A stretch of DNA of 32,000 nt from an uncultured Erysipelotrichaceae bacterium (GTDB lineage Bacteria; Bacillota_I; Bacilli_A; Erysipelotrichales; Erysipelotrichaceae). Positions within the stretch are counted from its first letter, which is position 1. Each line of letters starts with the position of its first letter. This document shows, piece after piece, positions 1-15,758 of the stretch. The position numbers were made by a program, and so were the translations under genes. A model generated the notes under the pieces. It ran no database searches. It worked only from the letters and a program-made list of their open reading frames with translations, and had not been told where the DNA came from. The stretch is from assembly GCA_942492995.1 (NCBI GenBank), contig OW818653.1, positions 1,800,001 through 1,832,000 of the forward strand, read 5' to 3'.

Positions 1-154
1 ATGGGGATATGATTACTATGGAGATAGTAGAACCGTTGATTCACATATGACTCGATTAAGAAGTAAACTCGATCATTATAAACATCCATTATGGGATTTA
101 AAGACAGTATGGGGTGTTGGATATAAGTTTGAGACAACAGAGGAAAAAGTATGA
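1..154 (+). CDS. OmpR/PhoB-family response regulator, C-terminal fragment (5' end lies outside the window)
   Basis: Frame 2 reads WGYDYYGDSRTVDSHMTRLRSKLDHYKHPLWDLKTVWGVGYKFETTEEKV*, the typical winged-helix tail of OmpR-type regulators. Its TGA stop overlaps the kinase ATG (ATGA at 151-154). Confidence 0.85.
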   Translation, partial: WGYDYYGDSRTVDSHMTRLRSKLDHYKHPLWDLKTVWGVGYKFETTEEKV

Positions 155-1581
155 AACAAGGAATAACACGTAAGCTTATTCTTTATTTCATTTTGGTTAT
201 TATATCGTTTGCGATCGTTATAGGATTTGTGTTTGGATTCAATGTACGTAAACAGACAAGAGATACCATCGAAATTAATCTATTAAGTCAATCGAATCTA
301 ATCGCGAATGAAATCGCAGAGAATCGAAGTTTTGATATAGAACAGAGTCAAATTGATTATTATCTATCATCCGTAGATCTCGAAGATTTACAAGTATGGA
401 TCGTAAGTAATGATGGTGAAATAACGGCAGTAACAGAAACGCATATGGGAATGGGAATGATGCGTAATTATTTTAATCTCAATAAATCAACACAAGATTT
501 ATTATCTAAAGTACTTAAAGGTGAACAACTTGTAAGTGATCGTATAAAGGGTGTATTCAATGTCGATACTGTAACAGTAGGAACACCGATTAAGATTAAT
601 AATCAGGTTATTGGCGCATTGTTTATCTCTGCGTCTATATCATCGATTAATGCGTTAAGTACAACCAGTATTAGAACCATGTTAATTGCGTTAAGTATCG
701 GGATACTCATCGCAATTGCGCTAGGATACTTCTTATCCCTTAACTTTGTTAAACCATTAATGCGAGCGAATCAAGCTGTAAATACATTAGCCTTAGGCCA
801 ATACGATATCCATATCGATGACTCAAGAGCTGATGAAATAGGATTACTCGCCCGTAATATTAATAGTCTAGCCAAACGATTAGATGATGCGTCACGTCAA
901 AGTGAGAACTTAGAAAAGATGCGTCAAAACTTTATCGCAGACATTACCCATGAACTAAGAACACCTGTCACTATCATTCGTGGATTAGCTGAAGGTATAA
1001 AAGATAAAGTCTACGATATCGAAGATAGTCCGATGATAAGTACACAGATTATCCATGAAACAGTCGGTATGCAACGGTTAATCCAAGACTTATTAGACCT
1101 ATCCAAACTCGAAGATCCAGACTTTAAACTTGATATGCGACCTCTTGAACTCCATGAAGTACTAAGTGATGTGAGTCGTAGTGCACAAGCTCTACTAGAA
1201 GCCAAGAAACAGCGATTAGTCGTAGAACTCGAAGAAGGTGAATGGAATATCATCGGTGACCATCAACGCTTAAAACAGATGTTTATCGCAGTCATAGACA
1301 ACGCTTCTAAATTCTCGAAGAATAGCACAGACATCAAAGTAAGTGCTAAACGAGAAGATAAATCGATCATTGTAAGAGTTAAAGACAATGGATCAGGAAT
1401 AAGCATTAACCAACAAAAAGAACTCTTCAAACGATACAAGAAAGATAGTCAAAACAATCCAAATGGAAATGGATTAGGACTACTCATCGTATCGCGTATT
1501 GCGCAAAGTCATAAGATTGATCTCAGTGTAAATAGTATTGAGAATCAAGGAACAGAAATAGTATTTAGTATAAATTTATAA
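151..1581 (+). CDS. Sensor histidine kinase (2 TM segments, HAMP, HisKA, HATPase_c)
   Basis: H-box FIADITHELRTPVT, N-box DNASKFS, G1 DNGSGI and G2 GNGLGL. An N-terminal TM helix and a second TM (IRTMLIALSIGILIAIALGYFL) precede a HAMP-like segment. The gene is translationally coupled to the upstream regulator. Confidence 0.92.
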   Translation: MKQGITRKLILYFILVIISFAIVIGFVFGFNVRKQTRDTIEINLLSQSNLIANEIAENRSFDIEQSQIDYYLSSVDLEDLQVWIVSNDGEITAVTETHMGMGMMRNYFNLNKSTQDLLSKVLKGEQLVSDRIKGVFNVDTVTVGTPIKINNQVIGALFISASISSINALSTTSIRTMLIALSIGILIAIALGYFLSLNFVKPLMRANQAVNTLALGQYDIHIDDSRADEIGLLARNINSLAKRLDDASRQSENLEKMRQNFIADITHELRTPVTIIRGLAEGIKDKVYDIEDSPMISTQIIHETVGMQRLIQDLLDLSKLEDPDFKLDMRPLELHEVLSDVSRSAQALLEAKKQRLVVELEEGEWNIIGDHQRLKQMFIAVIDNASKFSKNSTDIKVSAKREDKSIIVRVKDNGSGISINQQKELFKRYKKDSQNNPNGNGLGLLIVSRIAQSHKIDLSVNSIENQGTEIVFSINL

Positions 1582-1612
1582 GAATCTCATCGTAAGGATG
1601 AGATTCTTTAAT
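1580..1612 (+). terminator. Rho-independent terminator of the two-component operon
   Basis: Perfect 12-bp stem aagaatctcatc / gatgagattctt with loop gtaag, followed by a T-rich tail. It begins at the kinase stop codon. Confidence 0.8.
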
Positions 1613-1831
1613 TTGAATACGTACTTTAGAGTATCTAGATTAAAGGAATATAAGCAATATATTAAGAATAAATTCAGAACTCACAATTAGAATATATTGA
1701 ACGTGAAGAATGGTTTTTTCGATTGTGGATTTTGTAGGAATTCTGAGTGAAAGTGACAATTCTGAATAATACTGGAGTGTACTTATAACAAGATTAAAAT
1801 CAGATGGAAGCCAAATGGCAACAAAATGTAG

Positions 1832-2139
1832 CCAGTTGAAATTACAAATGCTTGGACAGGACTAAGTACAAAGGAATATAAGAATCTCAAAAGTTTATAA
1901 AAAGAAAATTTAAGAGATAATATGACAAATCTTGAATTAGTATTAAATATGTTAGCAGAAGCATCAACATCTGAAATTTCTAAGGAATTGAAACCTGAAA
2001 CTTTTGAGGATAATAAAGTAGTTGTCGAAAGGGTGGATTTGTAGCAAATGCAGCTAAAGTACAACTTGAAGAAACTACTGGGAAAAAGGTTATAACTGCG
2101 AAGAATAACAAGATAGTAAATAGTATTGAGAAGAAATAA
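1832..2139 (+). pseudogene. Decayed C-terminal remnant of a DinD/phage-antirepressor-like gene (in-frame stops plus a frameshift)
   Basis: Reading across the defects gives PVEITNAWTGLSTKEYKNLKSL*KENLRDNMTNLELVLNMLAEASTSEISKELKPETFEDNKVVVER / (frameshift near 2028) / KGGFVANAAKVQLEETTGKKVITAKNNKIVNSIEKK*. This resembles the conserved C-terminal tail I recall from DinD/antirepressor-type proteins. TAG at 1829-1831 and TAA at 1898-1900 interrupt the frame. The family assignment is from memory only. Confidence 0.45.
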
Positions 2140-2165
2140 TATTTAAGTTTATAGGTAGAACTGTA

Positions 2166-2768
2166 TTAATAAGACTTGAATGATTTAATCTCTCTCTTTA
2201 AGTAATTTACTAATAACTGTAGATTTCTTGTTTTATAATAAGGAGCTAATTCTAAGATAAGTTCTAAATCCAGCTCAAAGAGTTGATTCTCATCAATCCT
2301 CAAAAAATCAAACAATAAAGATTTTAGTTCAGATTGATTTGAACATGGTTCGTAAGTATATAAAATATCACATAAAGCCTTTTCAGCTTTCGCTAAAACA
2401 AAACTATAACTATTCTGTTGATATAGAATTGTCGCAAGACCAAATACTTCTCTCGGTACATCTCTATACGTAAAGTGACCAAATTCGTTATCATATATTT
2501 TACGACGTCGTTTGTTAAACGTTGCGGAAGTGAAATGATAAACAGCTTCAGGAATTAAACCATAATAAGAAAGCGCAAACTCAAAAGACAAGTAAGATGG
2601 ACCATAAATAATAGATGCTAAGTAATGACCAGGAGTTTTAGGGTCTGTTTCATACAAACCTTTAACAATTGGTATAATCTCTTTCTTTTTCACCATATTA
2701 GAAATTTTTGCCATTGGATTACTATATTGAGTTAGTTGGTCAAGTAAAACAGCAGTTGTATATATCAT
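2166..2768 (-). CDS. AbiEi-family (type IV toxin-antitoxin) antitoxin-like transcriptional regulator; no AbiEii partner present
   Basis: The 200-aa product has an N-terminal wHTH ending in IVKGLYE, then ASIIYGPSYLSFEFALSYYGLIPEAVY...FTYRDVP, the pattern typical of AbiEi antitoxins. A GGAG Shine-Dalgarno sequence lies 7 nt upstream of the ATG. Confidence 0.75.
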   Translation of the reverse strand: MIYTTAVLLDQLTQYSNPMAKISNMVKKKEIIPIVKGLYETDPKTPGHYLASIIYGPSYLSFEFALSYYGLIPEAVYHFTSATFNKRRRKIYDNEFGHFTYRDVPREVFGLATILYQQNSYSFVLAKAEKALCDILYTYEPCSNQSELKSLLFDFLRIDENQLFELDLELILELAPYYKTRNLQLLVNYLKREIKSFKSY

Positions 2769-2814
2769 ATTTTCTCCAGATAATCCAATAATAATGTATT
2801 ATCTGGAGAAAATA
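2768..2814. promoter_or_regulatory. Perfect 17-bp inverted repeat (13-bp spacer) covering the SD and start codon of the AbiEi gene
   Basis: tattttctccagataat (2768-2784) is the exact reverse complement of attatctggagaaaata (2798-2814). On the minus-strand mRNA the 3' arm contains GGAG and the A of the AUG. Confidence 0.7.
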
Positions 2815-3027
2815 AATACTATTTTAACTAGAATCTCTAAATATTTATATGTAATAAACGTATTTTGTCCTTATAAGATTATAAACTTTATAACTATTGA
2901 ACAAATATTAGGACTTTTTAAATTGATGTCAGTATATATAATTGAAACTTACAACAGTTACATTTAACAGACGGTGTCTATTAAATTAAGTTGAACTAAA
3001 TGTAAGTCAAGTAAAAATGGAAATAAC

Positions 3028-3056
3028 TTGACATTCTAGATTAGCGATACTATATT
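3028..3056 (+). promoter_or_regulatory. Candidate sigma-A promoter for the 3077-5272 operon
   Basis: TTGACA (3028-3033), a 17-nt spacer, then TATATT (3051-3056), 20 nt upstream of the ATG at 3077. The short inverted repeat gtcaagt/acttgac (3005-3011 / 3026-3032) overlaps the -35 element. Confidence 0.5.
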
Positions 3057-3076
3057 GAAATTATTACAGGTAAACA

Positions 3077-3787
3077 ATGAATTACACAAAAATAGTAAAA
3101 GAAGAAATACATAAATACGAAGAAACTGAATTGATTAATTCTAATCAGTTATTTTTAAATAAATTATCTAGTATACCAGAGTTTACGTATTACAAGATTC
3201 TAGAAAGAATGGTTAAAAACAACGAATTAGCAAGAATTTCAAAAGGAATATATGTAATTCCAAAACAAACTGAGTTTGGATTGATATCAAATAGTGAAGA
3301 AAAAATATTGAATTTATATTTAGAAAATAATAATGGATTATATAAAGGACTTTATTTGTTTAATCATCTCGGTTTAACAACGCAATTACCCAAAATAATT
3401 GAAATATATTCTTCGAATCTTGATCAAGAAACAAAGAGAATTAATAATTTTAGAATCCAAAAAATTAATATGAAATTAAACAAAGAAAATGTACACTATA
3501 TCGAATTACTTGAAGTGTTAGAGAATTACTACAAAATTGAAGATATAAATCATAATAAGTTTATTTCCTATCTAAGGAAAAGTGTTAATTCCTATAATGA
3601 CATTAATTTAAAGTATGTATTAAAAAATAAAAAGTATAAGAAATCTACAATTGCGTTTCTTGAAACGATTTTGAATAAATATGGAATAAAGAATACTTTA
3701 AATATGTATCTAAATCGAACATCAAAATATAAAGTTCCAGATTTAGAATTTACTTCTGAGTACGATAATTATAAAGAAATATGTTAG
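3077..3787 (+). CDS. AbiEi/DUF6088-like wHTH protein (antitoxin-type)
   Basis: The 236-aa product reads YYKILERMVKNNELARISKGIYVIPKQTEFG...YLFNHLGLTTQLPKIIEIYSS. This is a wHTH ending in the (K/R)G(I/V)Y motif followed by a 'LGLTTQ(V/L)P' segment, as in AbiEi/DUF6088 proteins. It lies 15 nt upstream of the next gene. Confidence 0.6.
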   Translation: MNYTKIVKEEIHKYEETELINSNQLFLNKLSSIPEFTYYKILERMVKNNELARISKGIYVIPKQTEFGLISNSEEKILNLYLENNNGLYKGLYLFNHLGLTTQLPKIIEIYSSNLDQETKRINNFRIQKINMKLNKENVHYIELLEVLENYYKIEDINHNKFISYLRKSVNSYNDINLKYVLKNKKYKKSTIAFLETILNKYGIKNTLNMYLNRTSKYKVPDLEFTSEYDNYKEIC

Positions 3788-3802
3788 TAAAAGGAAAAAA
3801 AT

Positions 3803-5272
3803 ATGGAAAACAGCAAAATAATTAAAAGTTATCAAACAGACAAAGAATCACAATATTTTGATCGGAAAAGCGCGAGAATAGATCCGAAAGAAATCGCAAA
3901 ACTTATTTCTGCTTACGCAAATGCAGATGGGGGAACGATCGTATTAGGGATTGAAGATAATGGTGTAATAACTGGATTTAAAACGACTAATTCAAAAGCA
4001 ATTGATAGTTTTAAACGCACATCTTTTACATTTCTCAATAGTCATCCTCAAACTGAATTCGAAGAAATAGATTGCATTAATATAAACAATGAATCAGATA
4101 AATTATTAATAATAAAAGTAGAATGTGAAACAAATAATATCATTCAAATGACGAATGATGATGTCTATCTTAGAGTCGGCGATCAATCTAAAAAGTTAAC
4201 TCATTTAGACATTGAACGTTTAAAATATGATAAAGGAGCAAGTCATTTTGAAGAAATAATCAATCCTCGAGGGTCCATAAATGATTTAAATATGGGCCTA
4301 GTTGAAGAGTATTGTAAACTTTTAAAATTCGATAAAGAATTCTCTAATCCAATTAGTGTTCTAGAGTCTAGACATTTATTGGTAAATTCAAAACCAACAA
4401 ATGCTTGTTTATTGTTATTCGCAAAAGATTTAACAAAATTTTGCCCAAACTATGGGATTAGATTCATAAAATATGAAGGTCTGTTTGCGGAAACTGGAGA
4501 ACGTTTAAATATCATAAGAGACGAATTATTTGAAGGACCATTACCTATTCTGATTGATAAATGTATAAATTTTGTTCAGTCACAGTTACGGTTTTTTAAT
4601 TCTCTTGATATCAAAACAAATACATTTTTAACGATTCCAGAATATCCTGAAGCTGCTTGGGTTGAAGGAATTATTAATGCTGTTACACATCGCGACTACT
4701 CTATTCTAGGGGATCAAATTAAGATTTTTATGTTTGATGATAGGATTGAAATTAGAAGTCCGGGTAAATTACCCAATATTGTGAACCTTGAAAACATGAA
4801 GAATACGAGATATTCGCGTAATCCACGTGTTGCTCGAGTCCTTAATGATTTTGGTAAAGTAAAAGAGTTAAATGAAGGAGTTAAGAGAATGTATGAAGAA
4901 ATGCATCGTTTCTCTTTAAATGAACCAAAATATTCTGAACCTTATAATAATTCTGTTTTGCTTATATTGGAGAATAACATCATTATACGAAAATTGAGAA
5001 AAGCAGATGTGATAATGAAAATTATTGAAGAATACCAAGGAATTGTTACAGAAGAAGAGAAGCTTATATTAATTGCATTAACAAATAAAATGAAAATAAC
5101 AATTAAGGAAAGTTGTGAGTTAATTAATAGAAGTCCGAAATATACTAGAAGTCTACTGATGAATTTAGTTAATTTAGAGATTCTAAATTGGAATAGGACT
5201 TCTCAGAAAGATCCAAAGCAATACTATACTCTAAAATTAATCTCTGAGAAGTCCTCGAGTAGAACCGAGTAG
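3803..5272 (+). CDS. AlbA_2 (Schlafen-type) domain / HATPase_c_4-like / C-terminal wHTH protein (often mis-annotated as 'RecG-like')
   Basis: The N-terminus reads ESQYFDRKSARI...AYANADGGTIVLGIEDNGVITGF (AlbA_2). The middle reads EGIINAVTHRDYSILGDQIKIFMFDDRIEIRSPGKLP...YSRNPRVARVLNDFGKVKELNEGVKRM (HATPase_c_4-like). The C-terminus is a wHTH (ITIKESCELINRSPKYTRSLLMNLVNLEIL). An AAAGGA SD is present. The last 5 codons and the TAG stop lie inside the 10-bp repeat. Confidence 0.8.
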   Translation: MENSKIIKSYQTDKESQYFDRKSARIDPKEIAKLISAYANADGGTIVLGIEDNGVITGFKTTNSKAIDSFKRTSFTFLNSHPQTEFEEIDCININNESDKLLIIKVECETNNIIQMTNDDVYLRVGDQSKKLTHLDIERLKYDKGASHFEEIINPRGSINDLNMGLVEEYCKLLKFDKEFSNPISVLESRHLLVNSKPTNACLLLFAKDLTKFCPNYGIRFIKYEGLFAETGERLNIIRDELFEGPLPILIDKCINFVQSQLRFFNSLDIKTNTFLTIPEYPEAAWVEGIINAVTHRDYSILGDQIKIFMFDDRIEIRSPGKLPNIVNLENMKNTRYSRNPRVARVLNDFGKVKELNEGVKRMYEEMHRFSLNEPKYSEPYNNSVLLILENNIIIRKLRKADVIMKIIEEYQGIVTEEEKLILIALTNKMKITIKESCELINRSPKYTRSLLMNLVNLEILNWNRTSQKDPKQYYTLKLISEKSSSRTE

Positions 5273-5560
5273 AACCGAGTAGAACCGAGTAGAACCGAGT
5301 AGAACCGAGTAGAACCGAGTAGAACCGAGTAGAACCGAGTAGAACCGAGTAGAACCGAGTAGAACCGAGTAGAACCGAGTAGAACCGAGTAGAACCGAGT
5401 AGAACCGAGTAGAACCGAGTAGAACCGAGTAGAACCGAGTAGAACCGAGTAGAACCGAGTAGAACCGAGTAGAACCGAGTAGAACCGAGTAGAACCGAGT
5501 AGAACCGAGTAGAACCGAGTAGAACCGAGTAGAACCGAGTAGAACCGAGTAGAACCGAGT
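5256..5560. repeat. Perfect tandem decanucleotide repeat, (agaaccgagt) x 30 plus a 5-nt partial unit
   Basis: Counted directly: 30 identical 10-bp units span 5261-5560, preceded by cgagt (5256-5260), with no variant unit. TAG recurs every 10 nt on the plus strand, so all three plus frames are closed. The minus strand has no stop in any frame. Confidence 0.98.
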
Positions 5561-5590
5561 ATAGTAAGTCATAGTAAGTCATTGTAAATT
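5561..5590. repeat. Degenerate flank of the array: (atagtaagtc) x 2, then attgtaaatt
   Basis: Two identical 10-bp units that differ from the main unit are followed by a 7/10-matching third unit. Their reverse complements supply the ATGs of the spurious minus-strand ORFs. Confidence 0.85.
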
Positions 5591-5652
5591 TAATAGCAGT
5601 AAATTGTACTGAATGAGAGAACTCGATTTGAAATTATAATAATACTTAATCA

Positions 5653-5690
5653 AAAAGGACTTTATATCACTCTATAAAATCCTTTTCATT
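5653..5690. terminator. Stem-loop terminator between the island operon and the reductase-gene remnant
   Basis: aaaaggactttata / tataaaatcctttt forms a 14-bp stem with 1 mismatch and loop tcactc. T-rich sequence follows on the plus strand. Confidence 0.55.
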
Positions 5691-5713
5691 ATTCTGATTA
5701 CTAATTCTAAATT

Positions 5714-5835
5714 ACTTTGAAAGCGAGAATCCACCAGTCCATTCAAAAAGCTCACGGATAGCTAATGTAATCTGTAAGAAATCATTGCAGATGTTAATGT
5801 ACTCTTCAAGTCAGAATCATTTATCGCAAATAGCG
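5714..5835 (-). pseudogene. Truncated, internally deleted copy of the 3' end of the reductase gene found intact at 14705-15265
   Basis: 5714-5784 aligns to 14705-14774 at about 90% identity (for example gagaatccaccagtccat and ctcacggatagctaatgtaatctgtaagaaa are identical). About 67 nt corresponding to 14775-14840 are missing. 5785-5835 then aligns to about 14841-14895. The copy translates to ...FLQITLAIRELFEWTGGFSLSK*, versus FLQITLAIRELIGWTGGFSLSK* in the intact gene. Confidence 0.8.
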
Positions 5836-6788
5836 TTCAGATTATCTAAGATAAACGAAGTAATCGGAGTATTAGAATACTTAAACGCTAGAATTACACT
5901 TCCAATATCTGGGCTACTAAATGGATCAATTAGTTGAATATTATGTTCTTTTAGTTTTCTTTGAAGGGGTAATGTAACAAACTCTTTACTTTTGAACACA
6001 CCACCTTGATACGAAGCATACACTAAACCATTAAACTGAAGTTTATTTTTTAATGCGATGATAATTCGACTAAGTTCATAAGCTGCTTCTTCAAATATTC
6101 GTAAAGCAGAAGAATCTCCTAATTCCGCCAAGATACTAACATCAAGAGCAAGACTAGCAACTTTCGTTCGATCAAAATCCCACTCAACAATAACCATTTT
6201 TAAGATATCGGAATCATTGATAAAATTATATTTTTCTTTAATATGCGAATATAGTTTTGTTTGATTCGATCTACCATCACTTTGCATGGTGAATTCTTGT
6301 ATCAATTTACAACCAATCCAAAAAGCACTACCTTCATCGCCACCAAAAGCATGATGCCATCCACCACATCGTAATGAATTACCATAATCATCTATCCCAA
6401 GTCCAATAGATCCAGTGCCAGCTATTAATACAATTCCAGGTTTATTAATAAGTGCTCCAGCATACGCATTCTCAACATCATTACCAATTGAAGTTTCAAT
6501 AGGGCTGAAAATATCACATACTGTATGCTTAATTAATTCATTGTCTTCCTCAATGTCACCATAGCCTGCAACTGACGCAAATATATGATGAATATTCTCT
6601 CTTTTTAAACCATTTTGATTCAAACACGCATCAAGACCATTTTGCATAACGCGTTTCAAACCATCTAATCCAACTTGTAAATAATGACTAGCGGGTTGAA
6701 TGTTTTCCGCTACTTTTATACCATTCTCATCGACTAATAAAAACTTGGTTTTAGTACCACCGCTATCAATTCCTAAGAACAATCTCAT
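5817..6788 (-). CDS. BadF/BadG/BcrA/BcrD-type ATPase; probable N-acetylglucosamine-type sugar kinase
   Basis: MRLFLGIDSGGTKTKFLLVD phosphate-1 motif, LIAGTGSIG phosphate-2 motif, and GGWHHAFGGDEGSAFWIG. Its start abuts the LacI stop codon. Confidence 0.75.
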   Translation of the reverse strand: MRLFLGIDSGGTKTKFLLVDENGIKVAENIQPASHYLQVGLDGLKRVMQNGLDACLNQNGLKRENIHHIFASVAGYGDIEEDNELIKHTVCDIFSPIETSIGNDVENAYAGALINKPGIVLIAGTGSIGLGIDDYGNSLRCGGWHHAFGGDEGSAFWIGCKLIQEFTMQSDGRSNQTKLYSHIKEKYNFINDSDILKMVIVEWDFDRTKVASLALDVSILAELGDSSALRIFEEAAYELSRIIIALKNKLQFNGLVYASYQGGVFKSKEFVTLPLQRKLKEHNIQLIDPFSSPDIGSVILAFKYSNTPITSFILDNLNAICDK

Positions 6789-7790
6789 TTAGATACCCCT
6801 CGTAGAGCTACGTACAACTAATTTAGTTGGTAAGAAAATACAATAAATATTTTTATCTTTATTCAAAATCATTTCCAAGATACGTTTAACAGCTGTCTTT
6901 CCAATCTCATCACTCGGTACATCAATTGTAGTAAGTGGGGGGATTAGATAAGACGAGAACTTTAGATTATTAAACCCTACTACCGCAATATCCTCAGGAC
7001 ATCTCAAATTATTTCGATGTATTTGTCCAATAACGATTTGCGCTAAAGAATCACTCCCCGCGAATATAACATCAGGTCGATTAGGAGATAGAATCAACTC
7101 ATTCGTTTGTTCAGCACATTTCTCAAGATCCCAAAAGCAATCTTTAATAATCGACGCATCATATTCGATGTTTTCTCTACGAAGACATTCACGATACATG
7201 ATTAAACGTTTTGTATCAAGCATGTCAATGTTTGGAGCACCTCCACCGATATACGCTATCCGTCTGTAATTTTGATTGAGTAAATGACGCATAATCTGCT
7301 TAGTAGAATCAAAATGATCAAAACCAACCGAATTGAACATATTTTGATAATTATCAATCGTAAGAATATGTTTAACATGAAGTTTTAGATCTTCAACAAT
7401 ATGCATTGGTAACATTTCCATTATAATAATTCCATCCAACTTCATTTCATGTAATTCAGCTAATTTCGAAGGTTTTTCTAATTCATCATAGTTAATTAAA
7501 TAGGACAAGCTACAATTGTTTTTCTTAATTTCATTTTCAATCGCAGAAACCATATTCATAAAGTAAGGATCAGAATACTTAACAGCAGTCATGGCCATAA
7601 TACAACCAATCTTTATTTGTTTCTCATTCTTGTTTTTCTTAGTAATCGAATAGTTTAAATCCTTTACCGCTTTAAAAATTGTTTCTTTTGTACTATCAGG
7701 AACCTTAAAGCTCTCATCATTCGACAGTACTCTAGAAACGGTTGTGATTGAAGTACCGGCTTTTTTTGCGACATCACGAATATTTGACAT
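6789..7790 (-). CDS. LacI-family transcriptional regulator
   Basis: MSNIRDVAKKAGTSITTVSRVLSN HTH followed by a periplasmic-binding-protein-like sugar-binding core. I place the start at the ATG at 7790 (GAGGA SD 9 nt upstream), not at the 24-codon-longer ORF start at 7862. Confidence 0.9.
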   Translation of the reverse strand: MSNIRDVAKKAGTSITTVSRVLSNDESFKVPDSTKETIFKAVKDLNYSITKKNKNEKQIKIGCIMAMTAVKYSDPYFMNMVSAIENEIKKNNCSLSYLINYDELEKPSKLAELHEMKLDGIIIMEMLPMHIVEDLKLHVKHILTIDNYQNMFNSVGFDHFDSTKQIMRHLLNQNYRRIAYIGGGAPNIDMLDTKRLIMYRECLRRENIEYDASIIKDCFWDLEKCAEQTNELILSPNRPDVIFAGSDSLAQIVIGQIHRNNLRCPEDIAVVGFNNLKFSSYLIPPLTTIDVPSDEIGKTAVKRILEMILNKDKNIYCIFLPTKLVVRSSTRGI

Positions 7791-7809
7791 AGTTTGTATC
7801 CTCAGTATA

Positions 7810-7822
7810 TGTTTACTAAACA
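7810..7822. promoter_or_regulatory. 13-bp palindrome TGTTTACTAAACA (operator candidate, copy 1)
   Basis: A perfect palindrome about a central base, 20 nt upstream of the LacI start. An identical palindrome is repeated at 7929-7941. Confidence 0.5.
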
Positions 7823-7863
7823 AATTATAGTATAAATTTATCAAATAATCAATAAAAATCAAA

Positions 7864-7877
7864 TGAAAGCCTTTACA
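7864..7877. promoter_or_regulatory. cre-like / LacI-type operator TGAAAGCCTTTACA
   Basis: Matches the CcpA cre pattern TGWNANCGNTNWCA at 13 of 14 positions (C instead of G at the centre) and is nearly palindromic. A weaker second site, TGAACGCGTAAACA, lies at 7908-7921. Confidence 0.4.
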
Positions 7878-7928
7878 TCCTATTTTTACTGTTCTACAAT
7901 TGATTTATGAACGCGTAAACATTAAAAG

Positions 7929-7941
7929 TGTTTAGTAAACA
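7929..7941. promoter_or_regulatory. 13-bp palindrome TGTTTAGTAAACA (operator candidate, copy 2)
   Basis: Same half-sites as 7810-7822. It directly abuts the AAGAGG SD of the GH4 gene. Confidence 0.5.
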
Positions 7942-7952
7942 AGAGGTTAACT

Positions 7953-9281
7953 ATGAGAAAGAAGTTTGTATTTATCGGAGCTGGTTCATTAGATTTCACG
8001 AGATACTTAGTACGAGATATTTTGACATTTGAGAAATTTAATGACTGTGAAATTAGTTTAGTTGATATTAATGAGAAACGATTAGCGTATGCTTACCAAG
8101 GAATTATGAAAATAATCGAAAAAGGTAATTATAAAGCAACTGTATCACTTACAACGAACAGAAGAGAAGCTTTAGTTGGGGCAGATGGTGTTGTTATAAC
8201 GATTCTACAAGGTGGTGTTGAAGTTTGGAGACATGATATTGAGATCCCTAAAAAATACGGAGTAGATATAAATGTTGGCGATACAAGAGGACCATCCGGT
8301 ATATTTAGATTTTTAAGAACAGCACCTGTCATGTTAGACATAATTAGAGATGTGGAAGAATTATGCCCACACGCAATTGTTCTAAATTACTCTAATCCAA
8401 TGGCGATGTTAGTAAGCTTTATGCAAAAACAAACAAAAGTGAATGTTACTGGTTTGTGCCATAGTGTACAAGGTACTGCAGAAATGTTAGCTGGATGGAT
8501 TGGTGCAGATATCAAAGATATTAAATATGTTTGTGCTGGGATCAATCACCAAGCATTCTATACAGAATATAAGTGGAAAGGTGAAGACGCAATTCCATTA
8601 TTAAAAGAAGCTATTTTAAGAGAAGAAGTCGCAAATGAAGAACCAGTTCGAATTGAGATGTTTAGACATTTAGGATATTTCCCTACAGAGTCGAGTGGTC
8701 ACAATTCTGAATACAATCAATGGTTTAGAAAACGTCCTGATTTAATCGAAAAATATTGTACGTTTGGTACAGGTTGGAATCCAGGCGAATATGCCTATAT
8801 TCTTAACGAATATCTTGAAAGAGAATCAACTTGGGAAAAAGAATATAAAGAATGGTTAGAAAACGGTGATATCGAACTCGAACGTGGTGAAGAATACGCT
8901 TCAAATATCTTCAACGCAATGCTTGGGGATAACACTCCATTCTTCTTTAATGGAAACTTACAAAATAAAGGTTATATTTCGAATGTTAGAGAAAATGCCT
9001 GTGTAGAAGTTCCTGTTGTAGCAACTGAATTGGGAATCCATTCAATCATGCCTGTTACATTGCCTGAACATTTAGCACTTATGGTAGATCATTCTGCTCG
9101 AATCGAAGAACTAGCAGTACAAGCCGCAATAACAGGCGATCCACTAAAAGTTTTCCATGCCATCTTATTTGATCCATTAACATCAAGTGTTCTAAGTATG
9201 CAAGAAATAAAAGATATGGTTCAGGAGATGCTGAACAAAAATGCAAAATATTTGAGTTATTTTAAATCATTAGAAATTTAG
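7953..9281 (+). CDS. Glycoside hydrolase family 4 (NAD+/Mn2+-dependent) alpha-glycosidase, MelA/AglA/LplD type
   Basis: FVFIGAGSLDFTR Rossmann start, NYSNPMAMLV, and the GLCHSVQGTAEML signature with the catalytic Cys. Confidence 0.88.
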   Translation: MRKKFVFIGAGSLDFTRYLVRDILTFEKFNDCEISLVDINEKRLAYAYQGIMKIIEKGNYKATVSLTTNRREALVGADGVVITILQGGVEVWRHDIEIPKKYGVDINVGDTRGPSGIFRFLRTAPVMLDIIRDVEELCPHAIVLNYSNPMAMLVSFMQKQTKVNVTGLCHSVQGTAEMLAGWIGADIKDIKYVCAGINHQAFYTEYKWKGEDAIPLLKEAILREEVANEEPVRIEMFRHLGYFPTESSGHNSEYNQWFRKRPDLIEKYCTFGTGWNPGEYAYILNEYLERESTWEKEYKEWLENGDIELERGEEYASNIFNAMLGDNTPFFFNGNLQNKGYISNVRENACVEVPVVATELGIHSIMPVTLPEHLALMVDHSARIEELAVQAAITGDPLKVFHAILFDPLTSSVLSMQEIKDMVQEMLNKNAKYLSYFKSLEI

Positions 9282-9333
9282 ATTACTTTACCAAAGTCTA
9301 TTACGCATTAAAATGCGTTGAAAGGAAATATGA

Positions 9334-10611
9334 ATGAAGAAATTAGTATTAATAATGATTAGTTTGTTTATGCTTACGTCTTTGGTCGGTTGCTCTGGTA
9401 GTGATACTAGCGATTCTGAGACAATCAAGTTGACCTTCTGGGGTCATCAAAATGAAGCATGGAATGAATCCTATCGTCAAATAGGTGATAGTTTCATGGC
9501 TGAAAATCCTGGTATTGAGATTACGTTTGAATTCTTCCCTTATGATCAATTTGAATCTAAGGTACAAACTTCTCTAATTTCGAAAGAAGGCGGAGCTGAT
9601 ATGTACGAAATGTGGGGAGGCTGGGGTGTTGATTTTGCGTCAACTGGTGCTCTAGCACAGATGCCTGATACGTTAGCACAAGATGTTATTGCTAATGTTT
9701 ATCCATCAACAATTGGTGCACTAATGTTTGATGGCAAATTATACGGACTTCCACTTGAATTTAATATCGAAAACGGTGGATTACTCGTAAATAATCAATT
9801 ACTTCAAGACAACAATATTGAAATTCCAACAACATGGGATCAACTTGTAGATGCTGGTAGTAAGTTAACAAAAGTTGAAGATGGAATAATTACACAAAAA
9901 GGCTTTGATTTCGTTAACTGGGATTCAGTTCCATACTTATTCTTATCTATGATTCTATCAACAGGTGGTGAATATCTTGATGAAAACGGTAAGTTCACTT
10001 TACAAACACCTCAAGCAAAAGTTGCGTTACAAGAACTCTATGATATGGTAGTAGTTGATAAAGTAACTGATTTAGAAGGTTTAGTTGGTGGTGGCGATCT
10101 TGAAGGATACCAACAACTATACGCAGGACGTAATGCGCTTGTACCTCGCGGACCATGGGTTATTTCTGAAGGTGAAGGAAGCTTTGGACTTGAATATGGA
10201 GTTGACTTTGATTATGTAGCAATGCCATGGTTCGGTGATAAAGTTGCGTTCGCAGCTGAAACAGGATGGGCACTTAGTGTAAATGGTTCATCTGAACAAC
10301 AAGAAGCAGCATACAAATTCCTAGAATATTTCTATCAAGATGAAAATCTTTTAGCACACAATGTTGCGGCTACTCAAATTCCTGCAAAAATTAGTGTTGC
10401 TCAAGATCCTGAATTGATAAATTTAATGCCATTCGCAAAACCGTTAGTTGGAATTTTGGATGATGCTCAATTCATCGGTTATTTCAATACGGACCAATTT
10501 AAAGAAGCAGTTAATAATATGTTTGTAGATTTAGTTATGGGAACTATTCCTTCTGTTGATGAAGCACTCGTTTCATTAGAAGATCATTTAAATACAAATG
10601 TAGTTAAGTAA
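9334..10611 (+). CDS. ABC sugar transporter, extracellular solute-binding lipoprotein
   Basis: Signal peptide with lipobox LTSLVGC-SG, and a family-1 SBP-like sequence (TFWGHQNEAW..., YEMWGGWG). Confidence 0.88.
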   Translation: MKKLVLIMISLFMLTSLVGCSGSDTSDSETIKLTFWGHQNEAWNESYRQIGDSFMAENPGIEITFEFFPYDQFESKVQTSLISKEGGADMYEMWGGWGVDFASTGALAQMPDTLAQDVIANVYPSTIGALMFDGKLYGLPLEFNIENGGLLVNNQLLQDNNIEIPTTWDQLVDAGSKLTKVEDGIITQKGFDFVNWDSVPYLFLSMILSTGGEYLDENGKFTLQTPQAKVALQELYDMVVVDKVTDLEGLVGGGDLEGYQQLYAGRNALVPRGPWVISEGEGSFGLEYGVDFDYVAMPWFGDKVAFAAETGWALSVNGSSEQQEAAYKFLEYFYQDENLLAHNVAATQIPAKISVAQDPELINLMPFAKPLVGILDDAQFIGYFNTDQFKEAVNNMFVDLVMGTIPSVDEALVSLEDHLNTNVVK

Positions 10612-11550: not shown

Positions 11551-12385
11551 AGTGAAAAAGACAGAAAAGAAAATAAAACCGATTTATATCATTATTTTTA
11601 TTGGCTTATTCTTAATTTCACTCTTTATGATCTTACCGTTCTTTTGGATGCTATCGAACTCATTAAAGAGCACAAAAGAAATACTAATCGATCCAAAACA
11701 CTTAATTCCAGTAAATTTTACTCTATCAGGATACGTAAAAGTACTATCTAAATCGCCATTCTTTTATTGGTTACGAAATAGTTTATTTATTACGATAACC
11801 AATACTTCAGTTATTTTACTAACAAGTACGTTAGTTGGATTTGTATTTTCAAAGTTCGAATTTAAATTTAAGAAAGTATTGTTCTTGATTGTACTAGCGA
11901 CAATGATGGTACCAACCCATACAACAATGATTCCAGGCTTCTTACTTATAAATGCATTAGGTTTGTATAACACATCTGCAGCTTTGATAATACCTTCGTT
12001 TGTTAACGCATTTGGTATATTTCTCAGTAAACAAGCATGTGATGACATACCGAATGAATTAATTGAAGCAGCTCGCATGGAAGGGGCAAGTAATTGGAGC
12101 ATTTACACAAAAATTGTATTGCCATTATTAAAACCAACCATTGGAGCTTTAACGATATTTACATTCTTGAATTATTGGAATGATTATTTAAATCCACTAA
12201 TCATGATTAATGACATAAAGAAAATGACACTTCCTCTAGCTTTATCTTATTTCTCATCTCAACATACAGCTGATTTATCCGCAACGATGGCAGCTTCCGC
12301 ATTAATTATGATGCCAGTAGTAATTGTTTTCTTACTCTTCCAAAAGCAGTTTATTAAAGGAATTGCGACGACAGGAATGAAGTAA
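11534..12385 (+). CDS. ABC sugar transporter permease (MalG/UgpE-like)
   Basis: EAA loop IEAARMEGASNWSIYTKIVLPLLKP and multiple TM helices. The start is uncertain: TTG at 11534 or GTG at 11552, neither with a clear SD. Confidence 0.85.
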   Translation: MIGIIKVKKTEKKIKPIYIIIFIGLFLISLFMILPFFWMLSNSLKSTKEILIDPKHLIPVNFTLSGYVKVLSKSPFFYWLRNSLFITITNTSVILLTSTLVGFVFSKFEFKFKKVLFLIVLATMMVPTHTTMIPGFLLINALGLYNTSAALIIPSFVNAFGIFLSKQACDDIPNELIEAARMEGASNWSIYTKIVLPLLKPTIGALTIFTFLNYWNDYLNPLIMINDIKKMTLPLALSYFSSQHTADLSATMAASALIMMPVVIVFLLFQKQFIKGIATTGMK

Positions 12386-13443
12386 TGAAAGATTTATTAT
12401 TAAGTGGATATAAACCAATTTCGCAATGCGTTACGCATCAATCAAAACTTGAAAAGGCAAAATTTAACGTAATCGATATTCATGAACATTTAGGGAAATT
12501 AGTGCTTGGTAATGACTATAAATCTCAATACAATTTAAATGATTTCGAATCAGAATTAGATCGTTTAAATATTCGACATATCGTAAATTTAGATGGTGTT
12601 TGGGGTAAAGAAATGATTGAGATGATTGAACATACACATTCAATCAATCATCGCATATCTACATTTGTTTGGATTGATGTTTCGAAAATTGATGATATTG
12701 ATTTTGATCAACAAATTAGAACACACATATATGACGCTTATCATAAAGGTGTGCGTGGAATAAAAATGTGGAAAGTTATTAGTTTGAATCAAAAGGACAA
12801 ATCCGGGAATTACATTCGAACAGATGATCAACGATTAGATGTTGTTTATAAATGTGCAGCGGAATTAAATATACCAGTTCTAATCCATATAGCAGATCCA
12901 ATAGCGTTTTTTCAACCTATAGATGAATCTAATGAACGATACGAAGAATTAATAGAAAACCCTGACTGGTCATTTGGTAAAGAAGGTCAATTTAGTTTTG
13001 AAGAATTAATGGAAATGCAAGATTCTATGATTATGAAGAATCCTAAAACGAAATTCATTGTGGCACATTTTGGATCATATGCTGAGAATTTAAGCCATGT
13101 CGCAGAACGTTTAGAACAATTTCCCAATATGTATATTGATATGGCCGCAAGAATTGCGGAACTAGGAAGAGTGCCTTATTCTAGTCGAGCCTTTTTTATA
13201 AAGTATTCAAATCGTATTTTATATGGTACGGATTGTACGCCATTGAATTTAAATCAACATAAACAATACTTTCGGTTTCTGGAAACGTTTGACGAATATT
13301 TCGACTATCAAGAAGAAGGCGAACAACCAGGTCAAGGTCGTTGGAAAATATATGGGATTGGTTTACCTGATGAAGTTTTAAAAGATGTTTATTATCGAAA
13401 TGCATGTAAATTGTTAAACCTTGATATTAAGTTATTTGAATAA
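12385..13443 (+). CDS. Amidohydrolase_2-type metal-dependent TIM-barrel hydrolase
   Basis: Metal-ligand pattern IDIHEHLG ... LIHIADP ... VAHFG ... LYGTDC. Its ATG overlaps the upstream stop (TAATG). Confidence 0.7.
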   Translation: MKDLLLSGYKPISQCVTHQSKLEKAKFNVIDIHEHLGKLVLGNDYKSQYNLNDFESELDRLNIRHIVNLDGVWGKEMIEMIEHTHSINHRISTFVWIDVSKIDDIDFDQQIRTHIYDAYHKGVRGIKMWKVISLNQKDKSGNYIRTDDQRLDVVYKCAAELNIPVLIHIADPIAFFQPIDESNERYEELIENPDWSFGKEGQFSFEELMEMQDSMIMKNPKTKFIVAHFGSYAENLSHVAERLEQFPNMYIDMAARIAELGRVPYSSRAFFIKYSNRILYGTDCTPLNLNQHKQYFRFLETFDEYFDYQEEGEQPGQGRWKIYGIGLPDEVLKDVYYRNACKLLNLDIKLFE

Positions 13444-13477
13444 CAGATTGGCTTAATTAAGCAGAAAGAAATAAGAT

Positions 13478-14632
13478 ATGTACTTAAATATTGAAGAAGA
13501 TTTATTAAGAAAGAATCTTGCGTATCATACTGCTAGGGAAATATCTCAACAGCCTTTCACGTGGATTGAAACGTTGAATCTCGTTCAATCCATGAAGAAT
13601 AAGATTAGTGATTTCTTACGTGAATTAGGTAGAAGAGGAAGCTATGATATTGTTTTTATGGGAGCTGGAACAAGTGAGTATATTGGGAACACACTCGTCT
13701 ATTATTTTAATAAGATAAGTAATTTTAACGCACGTAGTGTTGCGTCAACTGACATGATTCTTAATCCTGAACTTTACATTAATAAAAAGAAAAAGACATT
13801 ATTCATATCGTATGGACGAAGTGGTAATTCTCCTGAATCAGTTGGAGCAGTACAAGCTGTAAACGAAGTAACAGAAAATGCATTACATTTATTCATTACA
13901 TGTAATAAAGAAGGTGCATTAGCGAAATTTGCGTATCATGATGATAGAGTTTTAGCGATTGAATTACCAGATGAAACAAATGACATTGGGTTTGCGATGA
14001 CTTCAAGCTTTACGAATATGTTATTAGCGACGATTCTTTGTTTTAACTTAGATAATTTAGAATCATACGTTAAAAAAGTATACGAACTTTCTAAATCGGT
14101 CGAACGGGATATAAACTCAAACGCAACACAAATTCAGTCTATGATTGAAGAGTTTAAGTTCGAAAGAATCATATATCTTGGATCGCAATGTATGAAGGGT
14201 TTTGCTCAAGAAAGTGCATTAAAGGTGCTTGAATTAACACAAGGAAGAATTCCAACTCTTTACGATACATTAACAGGATTCAGACATGGACCGAAATCAT
14301 TAATAAATCAAAGAACACTTATTGTAATCTACTTGAGTGACAACGATTTGACTCGGAAATACGAATTAGACTTAGTACAAGAATTAAAGAACCAACAAAA
14401 TGGGTATAAAATTCTGCTTATAAGCCATAAACAAGTTGAATGTGAAACGGATTATTCAATCAAATGTACATATAATGATTTACCAATGGAACTTGCTGGG
14501 TTAAAGATGATTGTGATTGCGCAAATAATCGCATTCTTTAAATCTCTTTCTTTAGGAATTACTGTCGATAATCCATGTCCAACCGGTGAATTGAATCGAG
14601 TAGTAAAAGGTGTAACGATATATCCAATCTAA
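13478..14632 (+). CDS. Double-SIS sugar-phosphate isomerase/deaminase, AgaS-like
   Basis: The 384-aa length and FMGAGTSEYIG and SYGRSGNSPES motifs in SIS domain 1, plus a second SIS domain (YLGSQCMKGFAQESALKVLE), resemble AgaS and GlmS-C-terminal-like enzymes. Confidence 0.75.
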   Translation: MYLNIEEDLLRKNLAYHTAREISQQPFTWIETLNLVQSMKNKISDFLRELGRRGSYDIVFMGAGTSEYIGNTLVYYFNKISNFNARSVASTDMILNPELYINKKKKTLFISYGRSGNSPESVGAVQAVNEVTENALHLFITCNKEGALAKFAYHDDRVLAIELPDETNDIGFAMTSSFTNMLLATILCFNLDNLESYVKKVYELSKSVERDINSNATQIQSMIEEFKFERIIYLGSQCMKGFAQESALKVLELTQGRIPTLYDTLTGFRHGPKSLINQRTLIVIYLSDNDLTRKYELDLVQELKNQQNGYKILLISHKQVECETDYSIKCTYNDLPMELAGLKMIVIAQIIAFFKSLSLGITVDNPCPTGELNRVVKGVTIYPI

Positions 14633-14650
14633 ATTGAATCAACACAAAAT

Positions 14651-14683
14651 AAAAACTGAACTCTTAATTTAAGTTCAGTTTTT
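14651..14683. terminator. Bidirectional rho-independent terminator between convergent genes
   Basis: Perfect 12-bp stem aaaaactgaact / agttcagttttt with a 9-nt loop. A-runs and T-runs flank it on both sides. Confidence 0.8.
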
Positions 14684-14704
14684 ATTTGTTAATTATTTAT
14701 TTAA

Positions 14705-15265
14705 TTACTTACTAAGTGAGAATCCACCAGTCCATCCAATAAGCTCACGGATAGCTAATGTAATCTGTAAGAAACCAAGTGCTTCAAGTTCTCTAGCACG
14801 CTTCAATGATCCAGCATCCACGACATTCAATCCACTACCATCAAGTGCAGATGTTAATGTATTCTTCGCATCAGAATCATTTGACGCTAATAGAACAGTT
14901 GTAGCCGCATCACCTGCTAATGTATACGCAAAGTTCGTGTTAAATCCTTTCACGACAACTGCTGTAGGTACAGCCTTCGCAATCACTTCAGCCGCAGAAC
15001 TATCTGCAGGAACAGCCAATCCATCCATTGTCGCAAAGTCTACAGGGTTAGTAATATCGACAATGATCTTACCTGCTAATTCAGCTTTATGTGCTTCAAG
15101 GACTGACGCAACTGCACCATATGGAATCGCTAATACAACGATATCCCCTAATGTACCAACGGTATCCTTAGAACCGAATAGTTCTACTGTATTCCCTGCC
15201 TTAACGAATCGTTCTGCGATAACCTTAGCCATATTGCCTTTACCGAAGATTGTTATGTTTTTCAT
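14705..15265 (-). CDS. NAD(P)-binding oxidoreductase, NADPH-dependent F420-reductase-like (NpdG family)
   Basis: ITIFGKGNMAKVIAERFVKAGNTVELFG Rossmann motif in a 186-aa protein. It is divergently paired with an HxlR regulator, a common arrangement. Confidence 0.65.
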   Translation of the reverse strand: MKNITIFGKGNMAKVIAERFVKAGNTVELFGSKDTVGTLGDIVVLAIPYGAVASVLEAHKAELAGKIIVDITNPVDFATMDGLAVPADSSAAEVIAKAVPTAVVVKGFNTNFAYTLAGDAATTVLLASNDSDAKNTLTSALDGSGLNVVDAGSLKRARELEALGFLQITLAIRELIGWTGGFSLSK

Positions 15266-15401
15266 TTTATAATACCTCTTTCTTTAAGGATGCTTGTATA
15301 TTTGTATGCATCTGCTATAATAATAATAGTACACAACAAATAGTAAAGTACGCACTATAAAGTATTATAGTATCTAAAAAGATACTAAGGAGATAAGAAC
15401 G

Positions 15402-15737: not shown

Positions 15738-15758
15738 AATATAAATAAGGAGTTCATT

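Follow-up and report, generated by a model that had tools for sequence, protein, structure and literature searches.

Direct DNA repeats that recur about once per helical turn, stand head to tail in two clusters and are read by a protein encoded alongside them are known from plasmid partition systems. The parC/ParR system of plasmid R1 has ten direct repeats of 11 bp, five in each of its two clusters, and the tubC/TubR system of pBtoxis uses 12-bp repeats, again in two clusters, that are bound by a winged-helix protein; adaptors of the ParR/TubR type bind cooperatively, either along a single face of the DNA or by wrapping it. Iterons are direct repeats, usually of 17-22 bp, that are bound by Rep proteins and serve replication; P1 incA and F incC lie downstream of rep, and the origin (ori) of the Staphylococcus aureus pathogenicity islands (SaPI) lies immediately 3' of rep. 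In type III toxin-antitoxin systems (ToxIN, CptIN, TenpIN), the ToxI repeats, of about 34-36 nt, stand upstream of the toxin behind a terminator and give a folded RNA that is processed by the toxin. Here we describe an array of perfect 10-bp repeats at the 3' end of a Schlafen-family gene in a 32,000-nucleotide stretch of the genome of an uncultured Erysipelotrichaceae bacterium (GenBank assembly GCA_942492995.1, contig OW818653.1, positions 1,800,001 to 1,832,000, forward strand; hereafter the window). On the comparative evidence presented below, the array is a conserved companion of this Schlafen subfamily and not a one-off, and it probably represents a slippage-expanded set of helically phased binding sites for the winged helix-turn-helix (wHTH) domain of the adjacent protein.

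That protein belongs to a class of prokaryotic Schlafens that has been named 'HisKinase-HTH' (Perez Taboada et al. 2026, PMC13056530) and Schlatpase-HTH (bioRxiv 10.64898/2026.05.29.728809), HTH standing for helix-turn-helix. Schlafen-GHKL proteins with a C-terminal HTH are reported to form the greater part of prokaryotic Schlafens: they account for 19% of architectures in one census (PMC13056530), and most 'Schlatpase' proteins have an HTH in a second (bioRxiv 10.64898/2026.05.29.728809). Fusions of the HisKinase type have been tested in Escherichia coli and were not among the two systems reported to be protective (PMC13056530); tRNA cleavage and phage defence have been demonstrated for other Schlafen architectures only (PMC13056530, PMC13552941, bioRxiv 10.64898/2026.05.29.728809). 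In the SLFN-pAgo systems the SLFN-GHKL module oligomerises with ATP and the nuclease is licensed by the DNA-recognising part; for RzAgo this involves ATP-driven tetramerisation, an inactive filament before activation, and DNA recognition that licenses tRNA cleavage (bioRxiv 10.64898/2026.05.29.728809). No adjacent DNA repeat and no DNA target for the HTH is mentioned in any of these sources (PMC13056530, PMC13552941, bioRxiv 10.64898/2026.05.29.728809), and a literature search of less than exhaustive coverage found no description of an AlbA_2/Schlafen-repeat association or of a link to COG2865 or to decanucleotides.

Set against these systems, the locus in the window has a character of its own. 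Its gene has the architecture of the published HisKinase-HTH Schlafens and lies in a low-GC island with defence-type neighbours, and the adjacent DNA repeat is a component that has not been described for them. With parC and tubC it shares direct repeats of about one turn, head to tail and in two clusters, and a neighbour-encoded (here putative) reader. It differs from them in having no partition NTPase, in a reader that forms one protein with a nuclease and a GHKL ATPase, in the placement of the sites 3' of the gene, and in the residence of the family in chromosomal or prophage defence islands. Like iterons, the repeats are phased, lie downstream of the putative reader's gene in two sets with a spacer and appear to co-evolve with a DNA-binding domain; unlike iterons, they are accompanied by no initiator, helicase or origin features at this locus. 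The SLFN-GHKL supradomain is common to the window protein and SLFN-pAgo (RzAgo), but the DNA module of the latter is a guide-loaded Argonaute, whereas that of the window protein is a winged helix with putative cognate sites encoded in cis. As in ToxIN, CptIN and TenpIN, a tandem array is linked genetically with an abortive-infection effector of the RNase type; unlike ToxI, its units are 10-11 bp long, downstream of the gene, phased to the DNA helix and matched to the HTH, and the protein is not ToxN-like.

Results

A perfect decamer array overlaps the end of a Schlafen gene

The features on which the argument rests are the following, in window coordinates.

5256 to 5561, plus strand: main array, 30.6 perfect head-to-tail decamers, written AACCGAGTAG or AGAACCGAGT, with an AGTA core; overlaps the gene end.
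5561 to 5590, plus strand: distal variant units, ATAGTAAGTC twice and ATTGTAAATT (period 10, 2.7 copies, 94% by Tandem Repeats Finder).
3803 to 5272, plus strand: Schlafen gene, 489 aa, with SLFN_AlbA_2 at residues 15-132, PF13749 at residues 303-382 and a winged helix at about residues 412-478.
5036 to 5236, plus strand: winged-helix coding region (residues 412-478), the proposed reader of the repeat units.

Direct reading and Tandem Repeats Finder (TRF) agree on the main array, which has a period of 10, 30.6 copies, 100% matches and a score of 612; the second-best array in the window scores 57. Within it, the decamer AGAACCGAGT is repeated 30 times at 5261-5560 behind a partial unit, CGAGT, at 5256-5260, and two copies of ATAGTAAGTC (5561-5580) and a degenerate ATTGTAAATT (5581-5590) follow on the distal side, exactly as a preliminary description of this DNA had read them. 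A pattern search with AACCGAGTAG returned 29 exact copies and one with a single mismatch, all within the array. Elsewhere in the window there were only two one-mismatch matches, about one being expected by chance, and the total of 32 unit matches was reached in 0 of 100 shuffles. The distal units keep the 10-bp register of the main array and have the core (A/T)GTA(A/G) in common with it; they are likely to be remnants of an unexpanded cluster.

The gene runs into the array. Its product ends in S-S-R-T-E, and the TAG stop at 5270-5272 lies inside the repeats, so that the last five codons and the stop are encoded by the first 1.5 units. This, too, agrees with the preliminary description, as does the pattern of reading frames: TAG passes through every plus-strand frame across the array, and the reverse complement, ACTCGGTTCT, is free of stops in all frames. 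Two minus-strand open reading frames (ORFs) cross the array, at 5169-5582 (137 aa) and 5237-5572 (111 aa), with the translation (LLGSTRFYSV)n. We judged them to be spurious genes, because the units of other loci have minus-strand stops and nothing in these frames is conserved. An independent metagenome contig (L003; loci are cited by such handles throughout) has 9.0 copies of the same unit behind the same gene, which is 96.7% identical in nucleotides.

The adjacent protein combines Schlafen, GHKL and winged-helix domains

The 489-aa protein matches the Schlafen family SLFN_AlbA_2 (PF04326; 8e-18, 65.5 bits against a cut-off of 25.3) and the GHKL-type ATPase family PF13749 (4e-21, 75.4 bits against a cut-off of 26) in Pfam. 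The catalytic motif E-x4-(E/D)-x-K is intact as E15-SQYF-D20-R-K22 (ESQYFDRK); among 26 homologues E15, R21 and K22 never vary, and D20 is retained in at least 90%. An AlphaFold2 model (predicted local distance difference test score 84) places helices at 417-428, 434-441 and 445-457 and wing strands at 461-464 and 474-477. Structure searches with Foldseek gave 3LMM as the best match, then the N-domains of SLFN13, SLFN14, SLFN11, SLFN12 and SLFN5, and then MarR-type wHTH proteins; the fold of the C-terminal 85-95 or so residues matches the MarR-family members AdcR, MepR, HpaR (in the HpaR-DNA complex) and Rv1404. As modelled, residues 412-478 are thus a MarR-like winged helix. The PADLOC pAgo model covers residues 28-412 at 5e-43. 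All four domain and motif features looked for are present, and the protein is a prokaryotic Schlafen of the 'HisKinase-HTH' or 'Schlatpase-HTH' class.

The repeat accompanies one subfamily of the gene

We fetched 102 further loci encoding relatives of the protein and screened them with TRF, counting repeats with a period of 9-12 or 18-24 bp that start within 120 nt of the stop codon. Of the 66 distinct loci at which the alignment of the protein runs through the C-terminal domain, 52 have such a stop-proximal repeat; in the remainder of these loci the background is 0.0615 such repeats per comparable stretch (binomial 3e-50). Where the C-terminus is different or the relationship distant, only 3 of 29 loci have one (Fisher 3e-10 against 52/66), and these three exceptions (L009, L081 and L102) proved to have the same winged-helix type after all. 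The association extends to finished records at 43-45% protein identity, in which the repeats lie at or just after the stop: TTTATTGTAG in 15.6 copies in S. respiraculi, TAGGATACAG in 20.0 copies in S. dysgalactiae and CTAGTAACTTT in 3.6 copies in Fusobacterium. A 58%-identical homologue is followed by repeats of GTAGTTTAGAGTAATTAAGA, and two independent contigs break there.

Many of these loci are on prophages or plasmids, and the module is found at many ordinary chromosomal sites between housekeeping genes as well. The genes downstream differ from locus to locus and include an integrase, an hsdS-like gene, a helicase, a tRNA synthetase, a permease and TrkH. In Fusobacterium vincentii (NZ_CP084075; L007), a perfect (AAGC) tract of 35 copies lies at 5871-6010 of the locus, about 1.1 kb downstream of the start of the hsdS-like ORF behind the Schlafen module, and has the look of the classical phase-variable tracts of type I restriction loci.

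No repeat follows the gene in actinophage or Azospirillum homologues, which are 30-32% identical. The phage members of this set, in Mycobacterium phage Squirty (L131, genes 29-35) and Gordonia phage Eviarto (L130, gene 38), are distant homologues of 31-32% identity in the integrase-proximal region of a prophage, likewise without a downstream repeat, and the Squirty gene adjoins a RelA/SpoT-like gene. Both are annotated as 'RecG-like DNA helicase', and PHROG 12156 is likewise labelled 'DNA helicase'; the label has apparently been inherited in error by a Schlafen-GHKL-HTH protein.

The units are phased to the helix and usually form two clusters

In its ordinary form the element is short. Some 3-4 head-to-tail units overlap the stop codon or come just behind it, and after a spacer a second cluster of about three units follows 70-170 bp on (examples are L055, L052, L108, L034, L047, L011, L012 and L066). 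Spacings within clusters are 10 (74 cases), 11 (31), 20 (24), 22 (7), 9 (3) and 21 (1), and some loci alternate between 10 and 11, as in L073 (11/10/11/10). The spacing thus averages about one turn of B-DNA, as in a phased array of protein-binding repeats.

Unit sequences differ between loci while the 10-11 bp period persists. A common thread is nevertheless visible in the core: 22 of the 43 distinct units contain AGTA, whereas shuffling the units gives 3.8 +/- 1.9, and both AACCGAGTAG and the distal ATAGTAAGTC of the window fit the pattern. In 50 of 56 loci the units are on the forward strand and downstream only. Among the departures from this rule, L048/L049 have two inverted and then two direct copies, which make a palindrome; in L047 and L055 the cluster is edged by an inverted half-unit; in L074 four units immediately precede the start codon and three follow the stop; and L106/L107 have two direct units and one inverted unit abutting the ATG, with two more after the stop.

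Larger repeats occur as well. L021 has a 120-bp repeat in 2.8 copies (+289 to +620 after the stop), L064 an 89-bp repeat in 3.3 copies (-8 to +286) and L034/L039 an 86-87 bp repeat in two copies. The periods of these larger repeats run from 86 to 120 bp, and since the long units of L064, L034 and L039 (86-89 bp) contain short units plus spacer, clusters can evidently duplicate as blocks, in addition to growing by single units.

Copy number varies where the units are homogeneous

Of 73 downstream windows, 13 hold an array of at least eight copies, whereas 507 kb elsewhere hold just one, and the 30.6 copies of the window are among the largest seen. The preliminary description had taken the perfect homogeneity of the array as a sign of recent or ongoing slippage, as in a variable-number tandem repeat (VNTR), and the differences in copy number support it. 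The window has 30.6 copies and L003 9.0, a comparison within the window's own lineage that is subject to assembly caveats; L014/L044 have 11.9 and L015 22.9 with identical C-termini; S. salivarius samples with an identical protein have 8.2, 9.2 and 10.2; and four isolate assemblies of Mammaliicoccus sciuri, with an identical 469-aa protein and identical flanks, have 11.6, 15.6, 17.6 and 37.6. By comparison, a short and imperfect cluster of four 11-bp units in Massilimicrobiota is invariant in ten places.

Many of these loci come from short-read metagenomes, in which arrays can collapse or break contigs. Short-read contigs end a few units into arrays at L005, L006, L016, L032, L388 and L389, and such arrays are a recurrent cause of assembly breaks. 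In S. salivarius LR793259.1 (L118), an otherwise complete genome, a run of N lies inside an array of 20-bp units at about 3480-3545.

Unit sequence follows the winged helix

Across 43 distinct loci we compared unit similarity with the identity of residues 412-478 in a partial Mantel test controlling for residues 15-395. Unit similarity tracks wHTH identity (partial r 0.265, 0/2000 permutations); with the wHTH controlled, it shows little relation to the Schlatpase part (partial r 0.057, 313/2000 permutations). The asymmetry of the two correlations is supportive of the wHTH as the reader and stops short of proof. At the level of individual sequences, a putative recognition helix with ...RSVKVSRP... 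goes with the unit GGTTCGAGTA, ...R(R/Q)TA(S/T)... with TGTCGCA/TGTCGTA units, ...(S/T)GT(I/V)SNRLNHL with the unit TTTGGCGAG and ...SRPY... with TTTAT(T/A)GTAG units; L055, with GGTTCGAGTA, and L061, with CCTTGTCGTA, are examples of orthologues that differ in unit type. The element therefore combines linkage to one gene with co-variation between unit and DNA-binding domain, as a protein-binding repeat array should.

Decamer arrays in general

A genome-wide scan for three exact units found two arrays only, both in unrelated GC-rich metagenome-assembled genomes (MAGs). One, in a Deltaproteobacteria MAG (L001, 1-240), consists of GAACCGAGTA and variants at a contig end beside a primase-like gene; the other, in an Acidobacteriota MAG (L002, 4276-4393), consists of GAACCGAGTA and variants between ornithine-cyclodeaminase-like and PhoD-like genes. 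No Schlatpase homologue lies within 8 kb of either. We also scanned viral contigs (IMG/VR; L133-L377) for four identical 5-base cores at 10-bp spacing, and obtained decamer or pentamer arrays in 110 stretches for GAGTA, 61 for ATGAG and 79 for GGATA, many of them in giant-virus MAGs. Decamer arrays are therefore frequent with any core, and the recurrence of the same unit in the two MAGs can be chance and is probably coincidence. The universal motif that they had suggested was dropped after these control-core scans. The preliminary description called decanucleotide arrays of such length and purity unusual in bacterial chromosomes. They are indeed rare in the DNA flanking our loci (one array of at least eight copies in about 0.5 Mb), but the statement has to be qualified, as decamer arrays of all kinds number in the thousands in viral contigs. 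Because other causes, too, give rise to decamer arrays, only within this family can the AGTA core serve as a diagnostic mark.

Surroundings of the array in the window

The other features of the locus are these.

5652 to 5690, no strand assigned: hairpin whose left flank is an A-run and whose right flank is a U-run (RNA fold and our own terminator screen).
3028 to 3056, plus strand: promoter-like site TTGACA-17-TATATT, 11 of 12 positions matching, by consensus only; precedes the AbiEi-like and Schlafen genes.
3000 to 3019, plus strand: unit-like sequence ATGTAAGTCAAGTAAAAATG, 9 nt before the -35 hexamer of the promoter-like site; contains GTAAGTCA, which has three matches, against 0.78 expected in 32 kb.
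3077 to 3787, plus strand: AbiEi-like gene (DUF6088/AbiEi_4; PADLOC AbiEi 5e-73, Pfam DUF6088).

Beyond the array, the hairpin that the preliminary description had placed at 5653-5690 does fold, at about 5652-5690, as a 13-pair stem with an A-run and a U-run on its flanks; a strict consensus terminator scan did not call it. It is probably a bidirectional terminator for the convergent Schlafen and BadF/BadG-type kinase genes, and the whole array would therefore lie in the 3' untranslated region (UTR). In the terminator screen the first terminator-like site comes 416 nt after the Schlafen stop, with none between the stop and the last unit. The gene downstream of the array is convergent, and no co-directional gene follows. 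No Rfam family matches 5100-5850, and no tRNA was found in the window.

On the upstream side, the 32-kb window holds three copies of GTAAGTCA and no more: one in each of the two distal units and a third that lies 26 nt before the -35 element. The match at 3000-3019 (ATGTAAGTCAAGTAAAAATG), noticed post hoc, is a possible upstream operator by analogy with L074 and L106/L107, where units stand at both ends of the gene. The AbiEi-like gene behind the promoter-like site ends 15 nt before the Schlafen start and is therefore probably co-transcribed with it, and the short gap suggests that the two are paired. It is a lineage-specific neighbour outside the conserved module: none of about 100 related loci has an AbiEi-like neighbour, nor does L003. 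A second AbiEi-like gene lies at 2166-2768 on the minus strand (PADLOC 1e-63), and no ORF for an AbiEii-like nucleotidyltransferase, as in an AbiE (type IV toxin-antitoxin) pair, was found in 1600-5600. We also asked whether the repeats are read by a neighbour of the AbiEi or S24-repressor type and rejected the idea, as such neighbours vary or are absent while the repeats persist.

The two AbiEi-like genes and the Schlafen gene they precede belong to an island of low GC content (0.25-0.30 against 0.33-0.36), which has a histidine kinase gene on one side and the BadF/BadG-type kinase gene and sugar-utilisation genes on the other. When window 2000-5600 is compared with L003 3487-6782, the kinase gene is 87% identical and the Schlafen gene with its array 96.7%, and homology stops at the distal end of the array. 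Because of this difference in identity, and because the AbiEi pair is missing from L003, the Schlafen-array module seems, from sequence comparison, to have been exchanged horizontally into one hotspot. Farther on, from 12385 to 31614, the window holds an amino-sugar and N-acetylmuramic acid utilisation region, an ordinary chromosomal context that also has amidohydrolase and M20 peptidase genes and includes the following.

19763 to 20821: MupG gene; the closest named homologues of its product are only about 50% identical.
20872 to 22329: phosphotransferase system (PTS) EIIBC gene.
13478 to 14632 and 27676 to 28749: SIS-domain genes.

Discussion

Overall, we favour the view that the array is a slippage-expanded series of helically phased binding sites for the wHTH of the adjacent Schlafen-GHKL-HTH protein, and we hold this to be probable. 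The preliminary description had raised phased sites for the neighbouring wHTH/AlbA_2 protein as one of two possibilities, and that idea now has comparative support: the repeat is a conserved companion of the gene, it keeps a 10-11 bp period and its sequence tracks the wHTH. Physical binding by the wHTH, its cooperativity and its regulatory consequence are proposed from comparison. The ordinary element would be a set of phased head-to-tail units that takes one protomer per helical turn, all on one face of the DNA, and GHKL-mediated oligomers could bind it cooperatively, perhaps bridging the two clusters. On the simplest account, long, homogeneous and variable arrays arise in some lineages because at least three near-identical tandem units are prone to replication slippage, and such arrays would be recent, unstable outgrowths of the functional cluster. 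Most likely, a tRNA-cleaving effector would be docked inactive on its own locus, or would be autoregulated, or both, and the number of sites would set the amount of protein held.

Several observations weigh against this view. The evidence for recognition is wholly correlative, and a partial Mantel test on related sequences can be anti-conservative, as our loci are phylogenetically related. No TRF-detected repeat is present in 14 of the 66 subfamily loci, Faecalicoccus included, although some of these have degenerate units by eye; given the actinophage, Azospirillum and Faecalicoccus homologues without repeats, the association defines a subfamily and is not absolute. The sites are mostly 3' of the gene, which is unusual for plain autoregulation, as most sites are then not at the promoter. 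Upstream sequence has 1.6 units per kb against 0.9 per kb in coding sequence, and we rejected upstream operators as a general feature, finding them only at L074, L106/L107 and possibly the window. None of 80 GAGTA-core arrays from viral contigs lies beside a homologue, and control cores are nearly as frequent; this reverse test is low in power, because IMG/VR holds only about a dozen loci of the subfamily. Finally, the units are on the gene strand with no terminator after the stop and are therefore transcribed, which leaves room for a role of the RNA.

A more specific proposal is that the repeat cluster is a DNA tether, a negative regulator that would hold a tRNA-cleaving Schlafen oligomer inactive and release it when the sites are lost or out-competed. 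We put this forward tentatively, as a possibility with the odds against it. If it were true, release might be triggered, for example, by phage degradation of the chromosome, by loss of the island or by a change in supercoiling or occupancy. The array would then be a cis-encoded, protein-free 'antitoxin' or a sensor of chromosome integrity, and cells would come to differ in their firing threshold as slippage changed the copy number.

The rival that survives best places the function in the RNA, where repeats in the 3' UTR would bind or inhibit the RNase, as an antitoxin of the type III toxin-antitoxin kind or as a pseudo-substrate, or would set mRNA stability or translation. The units are on the coding strand from the stop onward, with forward copies only in 50 of 56 loci, and no terminator-like hairpin intervenes between the stop and the last unit; where a terminator was found, it follows the array (the window, L019, L077, L079, L080, L110 and M. 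sciuri), and the Schlafen domain is an RNA-binding nuclease. Nonetheless, single-stranded RNA would not need a spacing tied to the helical repeat of DNA, with its 10/11 alternation and its doublets of 20-22 bp, and unit sequence tracks the wHTH and not the nuclease/ATPase part. Where the C-terminus is of another kind the repeats are absent despite a conserved nuclease, inverted and palindromic copies exist, and a 10-nt unit with no Rfam match is too short for ToxI-like folds. An RNA-level role consequently strikes us as unlikely.

That the array is a neutral microsatellite or VNTR which happens to sit at the 3' end of a gene would agree with its perfect homogeneity, its copy-number polymorphism and the abundance of decamer arrays in viral contigs (61-110 stretches per 5-mer core). 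A neutral tract nevertheless cannot account for repeats at 52 of 66 loci, across distant phyla and GC contents, in the same place and with the same period yet with different sequences, and it leaves the two-cluster form, the AGTA core and the co-variation with the wHTH unexplained. We consider it very improbable for the element as a whole; the expansion itself may well be neutral, while the underlying cluster is not random.

Much the same low standing must be given to a contingency (phase-variation) locus, in which copy number would toggle expression of the Schlafen gene or a neighbour. This was one of the forms in which slippage had first been proposed for the window, and the array does share with VNTRs and contingency loci a homogeneous tract, a unit length that is not a multiple of three and hypervariable copy number from strain to strain, consistent with slipped-strand mispairing; at L009, moreover, 10 nt separate the end of the array from the start codon (ATG) of a gene for a DEAD/DEAH helicase. 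Unlike in such loci, copy number here shifts neither reading frame nor promoter spacing, and the tract grows from a conserved cluster. The coding sequence is not switched, because translation meets the stop within the first 1.5 units however many copies there are, and L003, with 9 copies, has the same protein tail. The next gene is convergent, the array does not lie between the -35 and -10 elements of any predicted promoter, and downstream genes vary across loci.

Less credible still is that the repeats are the iterons of a replication origin, or that they serve a mobile element as a centromere-like partition site. Phased direct repeats in two clusters 3' of a gene do resemble SaPI ori, P1 incA and F incC, R1 parC and pBtoxis tubC, and many of the homologous loci are on prophages or plasmids. 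The adjacent protein, however, is a Schlafen nuclease/GHKL ATPase and not a Rep or partition protein, there is no rep gene in window 1-9500, no ParM-, ParA- or TubZ-type NTPase is found among the neighbours or recurs across related loci, and the module occupies many ordinary chromosomal sites between housekeeping genes. As for an array, or an array length, created by the assembler, repeats longer than a read are hard to size, contigs do break in such arrays (L005/L006, L016, L032, L388/L389) and one complete genome has a run of N in its array, but the same unit in the same place in the independent contig L003, with equivalent arrays in finished plasmid records and differently made assemblies, dismisses the artefact that the preliminary description had allowed for as far as existence is concerned, so that doubt attaches only to the exact figure of 30.6, the copy number as assembled.

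Regardless of the mechanism by which the repeats act, the repeat cluster is apparently an undescribed cis component of a widespread class of bacterial Schlafens. The conserved, phased cluster behind the gene gives the HTH of these proteins a concrete candidate target. It also accounts for a class of perfect decamer VNTRs at which short-read assemblies break, and singles them out as pointers to these defence genes. The 'RecG-like helicase' label that such proteins have inherited is corrected at the same time.

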